64,000 bases of DNA from Pseudomonadota bacterium (GCA_038747355.1 JBCDJX010000005.1:5380-69379), one strand, 5' to 3'. Numbered from the stretch's first letter, positions 30,437-35,643 are shown. A program made the numbers and translations. Notes: generated from the sequence alone by a model not told the origin.

Positions 30437-31112
30437 CGCGCAGCGCTACGGCGTCTTTGTCGACCGCGAAGATGCGCGTTGAGTCGTCGTCCACCGTGTT
30501 CCAGGTCAGCGACAGGTCATAACGACCTACGCTCAATCCGCCGCCCACTTCAAACCAGCCGATCATCTCATCGATCTCGCCGCCCACTCGACCGATCCCG
30601 GCCGAGGCGAGCAGATAGCCGCGGTCACTCACCGGCGGGCGGAAGGTCACGCCCGAATTCACCGCCGAAGCGCGGCCATAGTAGTCGGGTGCATAAGCCA
30701 GCATCAGGCCCAGCGACCGACTGACATGCCAGTCCGCACGAAATTCGTAATAGCTCCAGTCACTGACATCAATAAACTCGGCGCGCGACACGGACAGCTC
30801 CAGCGCCCTGTCCTCGCCGAGGGATCGGAAGTAGCCGAGGTGAGCATTCAGGTTGCGAGTCAACGAAAACCCCGCCGGCTGGCCGTCGGCATAGTAGCCG
30901 CCACCGCCGACGAACCAGCCTGAGGCAAAGTCATAGCCGCCACTCACACCAAACGCGGCATGACCATTGCTGATATTGGCGCCGCGATGTACGACTTCGG
31001 AAAACGCATGCAGCTCCAGCGATTCCCCTGCACGGGCAGTCGCTGCGAGAAACAGCAAGCTCAGCGCGGCGGCTCGCACTAGAAGTAGTCTGGCTCGTTG
31101 CCGGCAATCCAC
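30417..31112 (-). CDS. Outer-membrane beta-barrel protein (TIGR02001-like 'proteobacterial OM protein'; family tentative)
   Basis: It has the signal peptide ...LLLVRAAALSLLFLAATARA and Gly/Tyr-rich strands (GVSGGYDFASGWFVGGGGYYADG). The start is either ATG 31112 or GTG 31079; the latter overlaps the upstream gene stop by 1 nt. The 3' end overlaps the convergent S8 gene by 20 nt. Confidence 0.7.
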   Translation of the reverse strand: MDCRQRARLLLVRAAALSLLFLAATARAGESLELHAFSEVVHRGANISNGHAAFGVSGGYDFASGWFVGGGGYYADGQPAGFSLTRNLNAHLGYFRSLGEDRALELSVSRAEFIDVSDWSYYEFRADWHVSRSLGLMLAYAPDYYGRASAVNSGVTFRPPVSDRGYLLASAGIGRVGGEIDEMIGWFEVGGGLSVGRYDLSLTWNTVDDDSTRIFAVDKDAVALRVSYRLR

Positions 31113-31648
31113 TTGATATTGCAGCCGATGCTCGGCTTCTGATCCGGCGTCGGCGCATGGCCTGCCAACACGGCATCCAGTGCTGCTCGTACATCGCTGC
31201 CGTTCACCGGCAGGCCATTCGACGGGCGACTGTCATCGAGCTGTCCGCGGTAGGCGAGTTTCAATCGGTCGTCGAACACGTAGAAGTCGGGTGTGCACGC
31301 CGCTTTGTACGCCTTCGCAACGGACTGGTCTTCGTCAACGAGGTACGGAAAGGAGTACCCCAGGCGCAGCGCCTCCTCACGCATAAGGTCCGGTGCGTCG
31401 GCCGGGTAGTTAACGATGTCATTGCTGCTGACAGCAAAGATTGCAACGCCCTTCGGGGCGTAGTCTGTTCCGATCCTGGCGAGCTCTTCGCCGACGTGCT
31501 TCACGAACGGGCAGTGGTTACAGATAAACATCACCAGCGTCGCCGGCGCGCCCGCAGCCAGCTGGTAAATGTTGCCGTCCGGGTCGGGCAGCGAGAACGG
31601 GGGCGCGGGCGTACCCAGCGGAAGCATTTCGGATTCTACGGCGGCCAT
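31079..31648 (-). CDS. Thioredoxin-fold protein (peroxiredoxin-like, PRX_like1 type)
   Basis: The motifs LVMFICNHCPFVKH and PFSLPDPDGNIY, and the length, fit the AhpC/TSA-like 'thioredoxin family protein' group. Confidence 0.82.
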   Translation of the reverse strand: MAAVESEMLPLGTPAPPFSLPDPDGNIYQLAAGAPATLVMFICNHCPFVKHVGEELARIGTDYAPKGVAIFAVSSNDIVNYPADAPDLMREEALRLGYSFPYLVDEDQSVAKAYKAACTPDFYVFDDRLKLAYRGQLDDSRPSNGLPVNGSDVRAALDAVLAGHAPTPDQKPSIGCNIKWIAGNEPDYF

Positions 31649-31865
31649 GGCATCTCTTTCCGGTTGAGAGCGGCAAGAATAGCGCAGGTTTGAACGTCAT
31701 TTTTGACGGATCTGGCCCTTGCCAGAAGGCGTTTCGTGCATCGCAGCACATGGCCGCACCCGCGCGCACTCACGAAAACCGCGCGACACGTTGACCGTGG
31801 GTCCTTTGCCCCTGCAAGCCGCGTGGTCTGTCGGATACGGGCTGCCGAAACCATTTGCACCGGTC

Positions 31866-31900
31866 GTTAATTTTTGGTAACTTTTGTTAACACTTGATAA
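31866..31900 (+). promoter_or_regulatory. AT-rich island with four G-N-TAA pentamers phased exactly 10 bp apart; probable promoter/operator of the RHH-pspA operon
   Basis: GTTAA occurs at 31866, GGTAA at 31876, GTTAA at 31886 and GATAA at 31896, each preceded by a T-run. A possible sigma-70 promoter is TTGGTA (31874-79), N16, GATAAG (31896-901). The island is strikingly AT-rich in a GC-rich genome. Confidence 0.45.
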
Positions 31901-31924
31901 GCAAATGACAACAAACGTGATCAA

Positions 31925-32437
31925 ATGCCTAACAGAACCAAGCAGATCGGTGTTCGCCTCACCGACCAGGAAGCGGAATTTCTCGCAACACTGAAGGTGG
32001 AGAATGCCGTGACGCCCAGCGACAAGCTGCGCGCCATCATTGACGAGGCCCGTCAGCGACACCGGGGCACCGAAGACTACGCGGGCTCTTTGAAGCTGGT
32101 GCAGGACCTTGTCGCGCCGTCAGCACGCATCGTGCGACAGAGCGAGAACGAACAGCGCATGCATTCGGAGCTGGTGACGCGGCTCGAGGAGTGGGCGCCG
32201 GAGTGCATGGCGTATCTGCTGGCGTCAAACGGCAGAAATACCGCGCTGGACAAAAAACAGCTGGTCGAGATCGAAGCGGCCATCGTGCAACGGGTCATCG
32301 TCTTGATGACTTCGGTGTTGCAGTTGGCCGTAACTCGCACAGCCCCGTTGTACGACGGGCGTGCGCTCGACAAGTCGATCGAGCCGGTGCTGGAACTGGC
32401 CCGCGTCATCGACACCGTGCGCAAACAGAATAACTAG
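31925..32437 (+). CDS. Hypothetical protein with N-terminal ribbon-helix-helix-like motif, first gene of the pspA operon
   Basis: KQIGVRLTDQEAEFLATLKVENAVTPSDKLRAIIDEARQ fits the RHH strand-helix-helix pattern. A helical domain of about 120 aa with no motif I recognise follows. The stop lies 13 nt before the pspA ATG. Confidence 0.7.
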   Translation: MPNRTKQIGVRLTDQEAEFLATLKVENAVTPSDKLRAIIDEARQRHRGTEDYAGSLKLVQDLVAPSARIVRQSENEQRMHSELVTRLEEWAPECMAYLLASNGRNTALDKKQLVEIEAAIVQRVIVLMTSVLQLAVTRTAPLYDGRALDKSIEPVLELARVIDTVRKQNN

Positions 32438-32450
32438 GAGGAGGAGAACA

Positions 32451-33119
32451 ATGGCAGAAACAATGGCAAGACGAGTTAGTCGGCTGATCAGTGGCGGGTT
32501 CAACGCCGTGGTCGATGCCGTCGAGGGCGCCAGCCCGGAGACCGTTATGGAGGAGGCTATCCGTGAGGTCGATAGCGCTATCGACGAAGTGCGCGCTGAG
32601 CTGGGCGAAGTGATCGCCGGTACGCATCACGCGAGCAAGCGGCTGGCGGACGAAACCAACAAGCACACCGAACTTGGCAAGAAAGTGGAGCTCGCTGTGA
32701 CGGAAGGTCGAGACGACCTGGCGGAATCGGCGATCGCTCACCAGATGGACATCGAGGCAAAGATCCCGGTGCTGGAAGCCGCGATTGAGGACGGCAAGGC
32801 GAATGAGGCCGAGCTGGAAAAATACATCGCCGCGCTGAAGGCCCGCCGTCGTGAGATGGAAGAGGAGCTTGTGACCTTCCGTTCAGCCAAGTCGGAATCT
32901 CCGGCGATGAGTAACGGCGCAACTGGCGGATCGTCGGTTGACGGCAAGGTTGACAAGGCGACCGATGCATTCGACCGTGTTATGAACCGCGCGACCGGTG
33001 TGCCCGGCATGTCGACGCCGGAAGACCGCAAGAGCGCTAAAGACCTGGCGGAGCTGGATGAGCTGGCAAGAAAGTCGGCGATTGCAGAGCGCCTCGCCAA
33101 ACTCAAAGGTGACAGCTAA
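32451..33119 (+). CDS. pspA: PspA/IM30 (ESCRT-III-like) family protein
   Basis: The ATG at 32451 is preceded by AGGAGGAGGAG. The N-terminal amphipathic helix ARRVSRLISGGFNAVVDAVEGASPE is followed by long coiled coils typical of PspA/Vipp1. The upstream part of the ORF-track entry (32361) overlaps the preceding gene. Confidence 0.88.
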   Translation: MAETMARRVSRLISGGFNAVVDAVEGASPETVMEEAIREVDSAIDEVRAELGEVIAGTHHASKRLADETNKHTELGKKVELAVTEGRDDLAESAIAHQMDIEAKIPVLEAAIEDGKANEAELEKYIAALKARRREMEEELVTFRSAKSESPAMSNGATGGSSVDGKVDKATDAFDRVMNRATGVPGMSTPEDRKSAKDLAELDELARKSAIAERLAKLKGDS

Positions 33120-33121
33120 CG

Positions 33122-33781
33122 ATGATTGATCTCCTGACATCAGGCAACAACGCACCGTTCACGGTTGCACTACTCGTCATGTTCGCGATTGCGATTGCCG
33201 AGGGTGCGGCCCTGGTGCTGGGTGCCGGCTTGTCGGAAACGCTGGATGCGATGCTACCGGACATGGATGTCGATTTCGGCATTGAAGGTACCGGAGGCTC
33301 GGTCTTCACCAAGCTGCTTGGGTGGCTGCATGTCGGCAAGGTGCCGATCCTGATGATCCTGATCGTGTTCCTGACGGCATTTGGCCTGATCGGCCTTGTC
33401 ATGCAGTCCATGGTCAAGGGCGTCACCGGCTTTTACCTGCCGGCCTGGTTCGCCTCGGCGCCCGCCCTGTTCCTGTCGCTGCCCGTGGTTCGGGTTGGAG
33501 CAGGGGCGCTGTCGATGATCATGCCAAGCGATGAGACTGAAGCCGTGTCATCGAACACCTTTATCGGTCGTACCGCGGTCATCACGCTGGGAGAGGCGAA
33601 AGCCGGGTCTCCGGCCGAGGCCAAGGTCGTCGATGAGCACGGTTACTCACACTACATCATGGTTGAGCCTGATTCGGCAGATGTGAGTTTTTCGCAGGGC
33701 AGCAGCGTGCTGTTAACAGAAAACCTGGGCGCCGTTTTCCGCGGCATTGTCAGCGACAGCCCGGGACTGAGGGAGGAATAA
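33122..33781 (+). CDS. yqiJ: YqiJ-family inner-membrane protein (NfeD-like C-terminal OB domain)
   Basis: Its architecture and motifs parallel E. coli YqiJ as I recall it. The N-terminal TM is FTVALLVMFAIAIAEGAALVLG, and the middle TMs are GKVPILMILIVFLTAFGLIGLV. The C-terminal soluble domain is FIGRTAVITLGEAKAGSPAEAKVVDEHGYSHYIMVEP. It lies directly upstream of a flotillin gene. Confidence 0.8.
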   Translation: MIDLLTSGNNAPFTVALLVMFAIAIAEGAALVLGAGLSETLDAMLPDMDVDFGIEGTGGSVFTKLLGWLHVGKVPILMILIVFLTAFGLIGLVMQSMVKGVTGFYLPAWFASAPALFLSLPVVRVGAGALSMIMPSDETEAVSSNTFIGRTAVITLGEAKAGSPAEAKVVDEHGYSHYIMVEPDSADVSFSQGSSVLLTENLGAVFRGIVSDSPGLREE

Positions 33782-35524
33782 ATGAACAGAGATAGTCTTT
33801 TGGGAGGAGCAGGCATGGACATAATGCAAATCGGTGTCATCACCATTGTTGTCCTGGTTGCGATGATCGCGCTCGGGCTGATTTTGTCACGCCTGTACCA
33901 CCGCGCCTCGAAGGAAGTGTCGTTCGTCAGGACGGGTTTCCGCGGGCAGACGGTCATTATCAATGGCGGCGCCATGGTGCTGCCGGTGCTGCACGAGATC
34001 ATTCCGGTCAACATGAACACCCTGCGGCTGGAGGTGAAGCGTTCCAACGAACAGGCCCTGATTACCCGCGACCGCATGCGTGTCGACGTAACGGCCGAGT
34101 TCTACGTGCGTGCCAAGCCGACCGAGGAGGCGATCGCCGCCGCTGCGCAGACGCTGGGTCTGAAGACCATGCATCCGGAGCAGCTGAAGCAACTGGTCGA
34201 GGGTAAGTTCGTTGACGCCCTGCGTGCGGTTGCCGCCGAGATGGCGATGGAAGAGCTGCACGAGAAGCGTGTCGACTTCGTACAGAAAGTGCAGCAAGTG
34301 GTGTCTGAAGACCTGCTCAAGAACGGTCTCGAGCTTGAGTCCGTGTCATTGACCGGTCTTGACCAGACGGGCTTTGAGCACTTCAATCCGCAAAACGCGT
34401 TCGACGCCGAGGGTCTGACGAAGCTGACCGAAGCCATCGAGTCACGTCGCAAGAAGCGCAACGATATCGAGCAGGATACCGCGGTCCAGATCCAGACCAA
34501 GAACCTGGAAGCGGAGCGGGAAAAACTCGAGATCGGCCGGGAAGAAGAGTACGCAAGGCTCGCCCAGCAGCGCGAAATCGAGATTCGCAGGGCGTCGCAG
34601 GCCGCGGCCATTGCCGCCGAGCAGGCAGAGAAGCTGCGCGAGTCCGAGGAAGCCAAGATCACCTCGCAGCGCGAGGTGGACATGGCCAGCATTCTTGCTG
34701 AGCGTTCCGTTGAGGAAGAGCGCATCGAAAAAGAGCGCTTGCTGAAGGAGCGTGAGGTCGAAAAGGCCAAGTCGGTTGAACTCGCCGAGCAGGAACGTGC
34801 GATTGCGGTTGCCGAGAAATCCAAGGAAGAGTCAATCGCCCAGGCTGAAGCTGACAAGGCACGTGCGCTTGCCGTTAAGGAAGAGGAGCTGGTTCGCACG
34901 GTACGCCAGGTTGAAACGGCAGAACGTGAGAAGCAGGTAGAGCTGGTACAGGCTCGCCAGGCGGCTGAGAAGGATGCGATCTCGATTACGGTCGCAGCCG
35001 ATGCCGAGAAGCAGGCTGCCGAGGACAAGGCCGTCGCCGTGCAGACGCTGGCGGAAGCCGAGGCCTCGAAAGATCGTATCGAAGCCAAGGGTGCATCGGA
35101 TGCCGAAATGCTGCGTGCGGCCGCTGCGGCGAAGACCTACGAGGTCAACGCAGAGGGCGAGCGCGCGCTCAACGAGGCGGCCAACCTGCTGTCGGAGGAG
35201 ATCATCAATATGAAGATCCGCCTCGAGATGCTCGAGAAACTGCCGGCAATCATCGCTGAGAGTGCGAAGCCGATGCAGCAGATCGACGACATCAAGATCA
35301 TCCAGGTCGATGGTCTGAACGGCGCACCGGTCGGATCCAACGGCGAAGCCGTCGCCCATCAGGGCAGCATGGCAGACCAGCTGGTTTCGAGCGCGCTGAA
35401 GTACCGGGCACAGGCACCGCTGGTTGATTCAATACTCGACGAGATCGGTATGGACGGCAGCGACCTCAACGGCCTGACGGCCGGGCTGACCGGAAACGGC
35501 GCTGCCAAGCCCAAGTCCGAGTAA
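33782..35524 (+). CDS. yqiK: Flotillin-like SPFH/Band-7 protein (YqiK type)
   Basis: The junction reads TAAATG with a GGGAGGA SD. An N-terminal TM segment is followed by the SPFH core (FVRTGFRGQTVIINGGAMVLPVLHEIIPVNMNTLRLEV). A very long Glu/Ala/Lys-rich coiled coil and a flotillin C-terminal region complete the protein. Confidence 0.9.
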   Translation: MNRDSLLGGAGMDIMQIGVITIVVLVAMIALGLILSRLYHRASKEVSFVRTGFRGQTVIINGGAMVLPVLHEIIPVNMNTLRLEVKRSNEQALITRDRMRVDVTAEFYVRAKPTEEAIAAAAQTLGLKTMHPEQLKQLVEGKFVDALRAVAAEMAMEELHEKRVDFVQKVQQVVSEDLLKNGLELESVSLTGLDQTGFEHFNPQNAFDAEGLTKLTEAIESRRKKRNDIEQDTAVQIQTKNLEAEREKLEIGREEEYARLAQQREIEIRRASQAAAIAAEQAEKLRESEEAKITSQREVDMASILAERSVEEERIEKERLLKEREVEKAKSVELAEQERAIAVAEKSKEESIAQAEADKARALAVKEEELVRTVRQVETAEREKQVELVQARQAAEKDAISITVAADAEKQAAEDKAVAVQTLAEAEASKDRIEAKGASDAEMLRAAAAAKTYEVNAEGERALNEAANLLSEEIINMKIRLEMLEKLPAIIAESAKPMQQIDDIKIIQVDGLNGAPVGSNGEAVAHQGSMADQLVSSALKYRAQAPLVDSILDEIGMDGSDLNGLTAGLTGNGAAKPKSE

Positions 35525-35546
35525 ACGCAGACAGGTCTGCTCGACA

Positions 35547-35579
35547 AACCCTTCCCGGGCAACCGGGAAGGGTTTTTTA
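35547..35579 (+). terminator. Rho-independent terminator of the pspA-yqiJK operon
   Basis: AACCCTTCCCGG, loop GCAA and CCGGGAAGGGTT are followed by TTTTT. Confidence 0.85.
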
Positions 35580-35643
35580 ATTCCCGTTGTAATGTTCGGT
35601 GCAGCCAGCCTGTCTGTTGTGGGGAGATTCGGGAGACTGCACG

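Follow-up and report, generated by a model that had tools for sequence, protein, structure and literature searches.

A stretch of 64,000 nucleotides from the genome of a Pseudomonadota bacterium (GCA_038747355.1, JBCDJX010000005.1:5380-69379), referred to here as the window, contains between positions 31,925 and 35,524 four tightly packed open reading frames (ORFs) on the plus strand, which code for a small protein of 170 amino acids (Orf170), a member of the PspA/IM30 family, a YqiJ-type membrane protein and a flotillin (Table 1). The gaps of 13, 2 and 0 nt between these genes and the presence of a single terminator behind the flotillin gene had already been read from the DNA in the original prediction, and both are borne out by the ORF coordinates and by the stem and T-run following the last gene, respectively. 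Strong Shine-Dalgarno sequences had also been expected at each gap. They are indeed present before pspA (GGAGGAGGAG) and the flotillin gene (GAGGGAGG), but yqiJ is preceded by a weaker one (AAGGTG), and none is recognized ahead of the first gene, orf170, in the source genome. The region probably represents one transcription unit, which would form a membrane-maintenance cassette of a PspA paralog, a YqiJ/NfeD-type protein and a flotillin, headed by its own candidate regulator. As detailed below, we regard it as likely from the sequence comparisons that Orf170 is a ribbon-helix-helix (RHH) autorepressor of this cassette, acting via an operator-like array over the promoter.

Table 1. Features of the orf170-pspA-yqiJ-flotillin region. 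Positions are counted from the first nucleotide of the window; helices of the C-terminal domain are from an AlphaFold2 (AF2) model.
Feature	Position	Strand	Basis or details
orf170, first gene, 170 aa, putative regulator (RHH N-domain and four-helix C-domain)	31925-32437	+	ORF
RHH-like putative DNA-binding domain, residues 1-48 of Orf170	31925-32068	+	Strand 6-13, helix A 14-22, TPS N-cap, helix B 31-48
C-terminal four-helix domain, residues 50-170 of Orf170	32072-32434	+	AF2 helices 52-76, 82-101, 110-137, 147-169
pspA, 222 aa, divergent PspA/IM30 paralog	32451-33119	+	PF04012 match
yqiJ, 219 aa, YqiJ-type membrane protein with NfeD-like OB-fold	33122-33781	+	PF21001, PF07290
Flotillin gene, 580 aa, SPFH/Band-7 and Flot domains	33782-35524; alternative start 33815	+	PF01145, PF15975
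Intrinsic terminator	35546-35582	+	13-bp stem (35546-35575) with 8 GC pairs, 4-nt loop, then TTTTTTAATT (T-run)
Putative sigma-70 promoter	31855-31883	+	-35 TTGCAC (31855-31860), 17-nt spacer, -10 TAACTT (31878-31883); read from sequence
Operator-like array, five or six imperfect 8-bp palindromes, 10-12 bp phasing	31865-31925	.	Sequence and cross-locus comparison
Units of the array	CGTTAATT 31865; TGGTAACT 31875; TGTTAACA 31885; TGATAAGC 31895; TGACAACA 31906; TGATCAAA 31918		

The earlier assignments of the three structural genes agree with Pfam matches above the respective cut-offs. PspA is recognized as a member of PF04012 (PspA_IM30) over residues 8-220 with 66.8 bits (cut-off 33.9) and stays below the cut-off of the canonical PspA equivalog TIGR02977 (48 bits vs 243); all of its homologs (79/79) align from residue 1. 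YqiJ contains the domains YqiJ_N (PF21001, 130 bits) and YqiJ_OB (PF07290, 93.6 bits), and the flotillin, whose gene adjoins this NfeD-type gene, matches Band_7 (PF01145, 55 bits) and Flot (PF15975, 126 bits) without being a FloT equivalog (52 bits vs 700). The TAA stop codon of yqiJ directly abuts the in-frame ATG of the flotillin gene at 33782, and 33 nt further on there is another ATG in the same frame, which is preceded by a separate GGAGGAG motif. Because of this motif, and because the alignments with the homologs begin at query residue 11-13 in most of the 73 homologous loci and thus favor the second ATG as the conserved start, the start of the flotillin gene is uncertain and may be at 33815, in which case the last gap would amount to 33 nt.

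Orf170 does not show a significant match in scans against Pfam, NCBIfam or PADLOC. A word-indexed search returned 43 clusters without informative names, the few annotated ones being called "hypothetical protein," and an exhaustive profile search enlarged the family to about 436 clusters (50% identity). The listed members have lengths of 140-205 amino acids throughout, match over their full length and show no fusions. Scanning of the GTDB species genomes yielded 80 loci from Alpha-, Beta-, and Gammaproteobacteria, Thermodesulfobacteriota, Bacteroidota, Ignavibacteriota, Verrucomicrobiota, Planctomycetota, Fibrobacterota, and Bdellovibrionota, and more divergent members in Microbulbifer and Myxococcota were reached from the PspA side; the family extends over about nine phyla. 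A survey of whether orf170 is kept beside pspA-yqiJ-flotillin elsewhere, which had been suggested as a check together with the original prediction, gave a positive answer: the gene order orf170-pspA-yqiJ-flotillin is found by tblastn in 78 of the 80 loci with enough downstream sequence, with pspA immediately after orf170 and differing genes on the flanks. The two exceptions form one clade, consisting of an orphan copy of orf170 (L032) and a locus from a gammaproteobacterial metagenome-assembled genome (MAG) (L040, 5506-6111), in which an IS1 element (InsA zinc-ribbon and helix-turn-helix domains) is inserted about 40 codons into pspA. The latter locus keeps the regulator gene and the operator despite its broken pspA.

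An RHH motif had been proposed for the first ~40 residues of Orf170, and this guess gains support from a profile alignment to RHH_1 domains, from the alternation of residues in the presumed strand and from a co-varying operator array. Over 80 sequences, the strand positions 6, 8, 10, and 12 are hydrophobic in 88-100% of the cases vs 0-11% at positions 5, 7, 9, 11, and 13, and R11 is invariant. Likewise, no variation is seen among 36 diverse N-termini at R11, T30, P31, S32, D33, K34, L35, and R36, which include the turn and the beginning of helix B with its TPS cap. When the N-domain profile was aligned by hhalign with a profile of eight RHH_1 domains passing the Pfam cut-off in related genomes, a probability of 68% and a score of 25 were obtained; the alignment spanned 52 columns and matched the strand, both helices and the intervening turn in the correct register. 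These values rose to 92% and 33 after adding five canonical RHH proteins, as compared with scores of 6-15 (maximum 14.8) for 20 column-shuffled controls and 7.7 for the reversed alignment. Matches to single RHH sequences were weak, RelB being the best one with a score of 21 and the correct register; as only one RelB was found in 41 genomes, the RHH_1 profile was used in place of a RelB profile. The N-terminal domain is thus supported by profile comparison as an RHH domain, which would act as a putative dimer on palindromic or tandem repeats.

The remainder of Orf170 is as conserved as the RHH part. Conserved positions of this C-terminal domain are D51, Y52, H80, S81, E82, W90, P92, E117, R123, and Y143, and invariant residues are H80, S81, W90, A96, E117, Y143, and L156. 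An AF2 model calculated from a 36-sequence alignment (predicted local distance difference test score, 85) shows 13 unstructured N-terminal residues, helices at 14-22 and 31-48 and then the four long helices of the C-terminal domain. Searching the PDB by Foldseek with the full model retrieved nothing below E=3, and profile hidden Markov models of the family did not match any PDB sequence. The earlier description of this part as a helical domain without an assignable family therefore still applies, as there is no recognizable relative in Pfam, NCBIfam or the PDB. Plausible roles that are compatible with the data are bridging of adjacent dimers, binding of PspA, YqiJ or the flotillin, and sensing of a ligand or the membrane.

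The upstream regions of the family contain a shared element. Nearly all orf170 loci carry, upstream of the gene, 8-bp palindromes resembling TGTATACA that follow one another with two or three A/T nucleotides in between, as seen in the 130 nt before 81 start codons. The motif TGTATACA with up to one mismatch is present 6.6 times per kb in these 130-nt regions vs 0.14 times per kb over the 780 kb of sequence outside them at these loci. An iterated position weight matrix (PWM; WWTGTATACAWW) detects at least two sites in 77 of the 81 loci and at least three in 61, and about 190 distances between neighboring sites amount to exactly 10 bp in 90 cases and to 20-21 bp in 24. The comparison across phyla therefore identifies the 10-bp-phased array as a conserved element. 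The array of the window ranks second-best in the whole genome, and a genome-wide scan for such arrays did not yield a convincing regulon beyond the window operon. The best 10-bp-phased TGTATACA-like array of the genome is located on another contig (C49, around 13974; TGGATACT / TGTATCCA / TGTCTACA) and could serve a different regulator as its operator.

The position of the array relative to the predicted promoter is suggestive. In the window, the putative promoter (TTGCAC-17-TAACTT) is overlapped by units 1-3 of the array; it is kept in a 96%-identical relative (L026) and scores below the threshold of a consensus scanner. Across the loci, sigma-70-like matches were called with at least 8 of 12 consensus positions, and 60 of the 65 loci with such a match contain at least one operator site inside the region from -35 to +1 (mean, 2.4 sites). 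The centers of the sites cluster between -45 and +10, and the -35 hexamer forms part of the first repeat in many loci (TGTTGACA). Since the array extends over -35 to +1, autorepression by promoter occlusion appears as the most likely mode of action.

A contact between protein and DNA is further suggested by their co-variation. The operators associated with the 66 proteins carrying S9 are of the TGTATACA type, while those of the 14 proteins with Q7 and G9 belong to the TGTTAACA, TGAAAACA or TGTTTGCA type, with TATAC almost missing from them (Fisher p, 4e-6 by residue 9 and 4e-7 by residue 7). Three changes, each accompanied by a change of the operator, are obtained when the Q/G state is mapped on a maximum-likelihood tree, at least two of which are forced by well-supported branches; the lineages concerned are a subclade of the Woeseiaceae, Thiodiazotropha and a group of Desulfobulbales. 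The sister of the Woeseiaceae subclade (L025) retains both S9 and TGTATACA. That two residues of the strand and the central bases of the operator have changed jointly more than once is expected for a direct readout by an RHH sheet, and residues 7 and 9 appear to set the operator specificity.

Taken together, these data suggest the following mechanism. The N-terminal domains of Orf170 would form RHH dimers inserting a two-stranded sheet into the major groove, with residues 7, 9, and 11 facing the DNA. Several dimers would be bound side by side on 8-bp palindromes one helical turn apart, the array unit being TGTTAACA-like in the window and TGTATACA in most relatives. With the array covering -35 to +1, Orf170 would most likely repress its own operon by promoter occlusion, and the C-terminal domain would mediate cooperative oligomerization and/or sense PspA or the state of the membrane, so that the cassette would be derepressed upon membrane damage. 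The canonical PspF/sigma-54/PspABC system, which is encoded elsewhere in the genome, would represent a separate circuit.

Several observations weigh against the computational assignment of Orf170 as a putative repressor of the RHH type. The Pfam models of RHH proteins stay below significance for Orf170, with a NikA-like model as best hit (E=0.03) in addition to DUF6290 and MatP_C, and a six-frame search of the source genome with RHH_1 misses the gene. A Foldseek search of the PDB with the N-terminal domain gives no significant match, the top hit being the RHH-like N-domain of SeqA (1xrx; E=3.6, TM-score 0.67 on the target, root mean square deviation 2.6 Å), and nothing significant is found in the viral library BFVD; such weak fold matches would be expected for a 45-residue half of a presumed obligate dimer. 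The AF2 monomer does not contain a strand, either, but is uninformative on the RHH fold because the latter is expected to be an obligate dimer. As to the operator, the upstream regions scored with the PWM had also served to train it, and the sites in the window are degenerate, with just two of them above 8 bits. The promoter calls, relative to which the position of the sites predicts repression, are consensus matches in AT-rich DNA, which itself resembles a -10 element. Finally, two of the seven genomes with this PspA subfamily in a sample of 400 genomes do not contain a detectable orf170.

The setting of the operon in its genome bears on how it may be controlled. The absence of PspF and PspBC noted in the original prediction is correct for the window, in which neither pspF, pspB or pspC nor any neighbors of this kind are present at the operon, and no sigma-54 consensus with up to two mismatches is found upstream of it; it does not hold for the genome. 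The source assembly consists of 3.68 Mb in 214 contigs, with close relatives of the locus labelled Woeseiaceae, and it contains three PspA-family genes. One of these belongs to a canonical psp locus on contig C6 (27499-30270; locus L001, 288-3085), where pspF (TIGR02974, 474 bits vs cut-off 444) is encoded on the minus strand divergently from pspA, with a sigma-54 promoter (TGGCAC-N5-CTGCA) between the two genes. The PspA of this locus passes the equivalog cut-off (TIGR02977, 294 bits vs 243), and its gene is followed by pspB and two consecutive genes for PspC-domain proteins (97 and 131 amino acids). Given this complete canonical locus, the window operon is therefore regarded as an additional paralogous system, and its PspA as a divergent extra paralog that probably belongs to a separately controlled module rather than replacing the canonical Psp system. 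The third PspA-family gene of the genome codes for a PspA/Snf7-like paralog of 238 amino acids on contig C117 (7389-9499; locus L003, 1432-3542; PF04012, 53 bits; Snf7, 29 bits). The end of this reading frame region and a gene for a 466-aa protein without family match share 4 nt, a gene for a 247-aa Cro/C1-type helix-turn-helix protein is located divergently from it, and the locus may represent another self-contained PspA module.

The reading of Orf170 as a simple autorepressor may be extended by assuming that its C-terminal domain binds the PspA of the cassette (or YqiJ or the flotillin), with free PspA acting as a co-repressor. PspA would then be drawn to the damaged membrane, the repressor would lose its partner and the operon would be induced, by the same feedback logic as in the PspA-PspF and PspA-ClgR pairs. 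The genes for the regulator and PspA are adjacent and co-inherited in the 78 loci with conserved order, the C-terminal domain with its invariant H80, S81, W90, E117, and Y143 is conserved like the RHH domain and resembles no known ligand-binding fold, and the sequence of regulator, PspA and membrane proteins mirrors that of clgR-pspA-pspM-pspN (PMC11237479). While this operon order and the shared feedback logic make such a partner switch attractive, natural fusions of regulator and partner are missing in all 436 clusters, and plain oligomerization via the C-terminal domain would account for tandem operators equally well; we therefore consider it a tentative proposal that falls somewhat short of an even chance. 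Orf170 may also be conceived as an activator or dual regulator of the operon. In some loci, the arrays indeed reach upstream of -35, with site centers to -70, and ClgR was initially reported to activate its own operon, but an activating role is unlikely in view of the site centers lying mostly between -45 and +10, of the mean of 2.4 sites per locus inside -35 to +1 and of the many -35 hexamers within the first repeat.

Two further explanations do not assign the operator to Orf170. The protein might be a chaperone or adaptor of PspA like the CesT/Tir-like products of other first genes, the repeats being bound by another factor. This idea takes up the failure of the standard libraries to detect an RHH domain in Orf170 and the report of a "CesT/Tir-like" gene at exactly this position in an operon of Dokdonia by Ravi et al. 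(PMC11237479). However, the AF2 model is all-helical without a beta-sheet, and no family member matches CesT (PF05932) or DUF2170 (PF09938) at E<=10, so a CesT/Tir type was set aside for Orf170. Moreover, the repeats accompany the gene through nine phyla, for which no common host factor is expected, and their co-variation with two residues of Orf170 is hard to explain by another factor binding to them, which leaves this explanation very improbable. Even less credit can be given to control of the operon by the canonical PspF/sigma-54 system, with Orf170 as an incidental companion. The genome does contain a bona fide pspF, but this gene lies divergently beside its own pspA with its own promoter, and in many phyla the cassette is accompanied by a conserved operator of its own; sigma-54 control of the window operon was rejected for want of an upstream match to the consensus with up to two mismatches. 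The preferred reading is thus still that of an autorepressor. Of the "PspA-responsive regulator or adaptor" proposed originally, the computational support covers only the part of a DNA-binding regulator, and a coupling of Orf170 to PspA through the four-helix domain is plausible.

The association of PspA, YqiJ and Band-7-flotillin proteins is already known from comparative genomics (PMC11237479, PMC9239133). Ravi et al. (2024; PMC11237479) described operons of yjfJ-type PspA, YqiJ/YuaF and Band-7-flotillin, with a gene for a CesT/Tir-like protein ahead and often one for an AAA+ beta-propeller ATPase after them, and Popp et al. (2022; PMC9239133) reported on PspA together with Band 7/FloT, NfeD and helix-turn-helix regulators in Acidobacteriota. 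As in the window, the three structural genes of these operons follow one another in the order given above, and an uncharacterized small gene lies before pspA, but no regulator or operator was described for them. As judged from the published description of the Dokdonia operon (ANH61662.1), its first gene codes for a CesT/Tir-like protein, whereas that of the window codes for an all-helical RHH-like protein and no AAA+ gene follows; the Orf170 family is not of the CesT/Tir type because it is all-helical and never matches CesT or DUF2170. The Dokdonia operon is not contained among the 120 best hits of a search for PspA homologs. Neither of the two papers nor a full-text literature search provided a description of this RHH family or operator. 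The candidate regulator family, its putative operator and the apparent co-variation of their specificity are therefore the new elements added here. Also close in its organization is the clgR-pspA-pspM-pspN operon of Mycobacterium tuberculosis (PMC11237479), which likewise consists of four genes with a small dedicated transcription factor, PspA in second position and membrane partners after it, and is autoregulated independently of PspF and sigma-54, as predicted also for the window operon. It differs by its Cro-like helix-turn-helix regulator, its partners PspM and PspN and its restriction to Actinobacteria, as opposed to a cassette with an RHH-like, four-helix regulator in about nine phyla. 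No helix-turn-helix, PspM or DUF3046 domain was found by Pfam and NCBIfam among the proteins of the window operon, which shares only the operon logic with the ClgR type. Compared with the PspF-PspA-PspBC system of Escherichia coli, whose effector is PspA and which serves as the paradigm of negative feedback exerted through this protein, the window operon lacks an AAA+ activator, a sigma-54 promoter, PspB and PspC, and its PspA fails the canonical equivalog, while a complete copy of that system is present elsewhere in the source genome.

With regard to its putative DNA-binding mode, Orf170 resembles the MetJ, Arc, CopG and omega repressors in its strand-helix-helix N-terminus, the alternating DNA-facing residues of the strand and the short palindromic or repeated boxes in tandem about one helical turn apart. 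Known targets of RHH proteins are the met boxes, sites with 11 bp between Arc dimers and the heptads bound by omega, and their autorepression works by promoter occlusion, as proposed for Orf170. Unlike in these proteins, the likeness is detectable by profile-profile comparison only, the 120-residue four-helix C-domain of Orf170 has no counterpart in them, and its boxes are 8 bp long with a period of 10 bp. Another RHH repressor, PutA, leaves the DNA for the membrane and provides a precedent for switching by membrane association. It would have an RHH domain linked to a membrane-related function in common with Orf170, but is a large flavoenzyme, whereas nothing suggests catalysis in Orf170.

The original description of the operon as a self-contained module is supported, and its distribution across the sampled genomes is patchy. 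The gene orf170 occurs in two of 37 genomes of the genus and in five of 400 sampled Gammaproteobacteria, and the PspA subfamily of the window is present in seven genomes of a 400-genome sample, with orf170 adjacent in five. In the two others, both from Gammaproteobacteria, the yqiJ position is empty (300-nt gap) and a second SPFH gene is located upstream (L107, G346), or a gene for a 90-aa basic protein precedes pspA (L109, G084). No compositional (GC) anomaly is apparent around the window cassette, which is flanked by unrelated genes for AhpC/TSA, a small unknown protein and TauD. Of these, the gene for the AhpC/TSA-Redoxin family protein (31079-31648, minus strand) is located upstream of the operon with its start about 275 nt from that of orf170 and is not conserved at the other loci. 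The cassette is probably accessory and horizontally spread. Two MAGs from the same study, assigned to Reichenbachiella (Bacteroidota; L055) and Fibrobacterales (L056), contain PspA proteins of 92% identity and near-identical regulators, which indicates either a very recent transfer or a binning error.

In bacteria, PspA/IM30 and the flotillins correspond to the ESCRT-III and raft scaffolds of eukaryotes, and joint PspA-flotillin operons have been noticed by comparative genomics. A regulator family absent from Pfam, together with its putative operator and two apparent specificity residues, offers a directly testable circuit, and the co-variation of protein and operator would be a compact natural example of a change in the RHH recognition code. 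A physical link from membrane damage to transcription would most obviously be sought in the C-terminal domain. It is possible, although we would not presume it, that this domain is a dedicated receptor for the PspA paralog or the flotillin/YqiJ scaffold, which would make Orf170 the third transcription switch with PspA feedback, in addition to PspF and ClgR and evolved independently of them. If this is true, the occupancy of damaged membranes by PspA would be coupled directly to the derepression of a PspA-flotillin repair module, which would spread from phylum to phylum as a plug-in unit that includes its operator.

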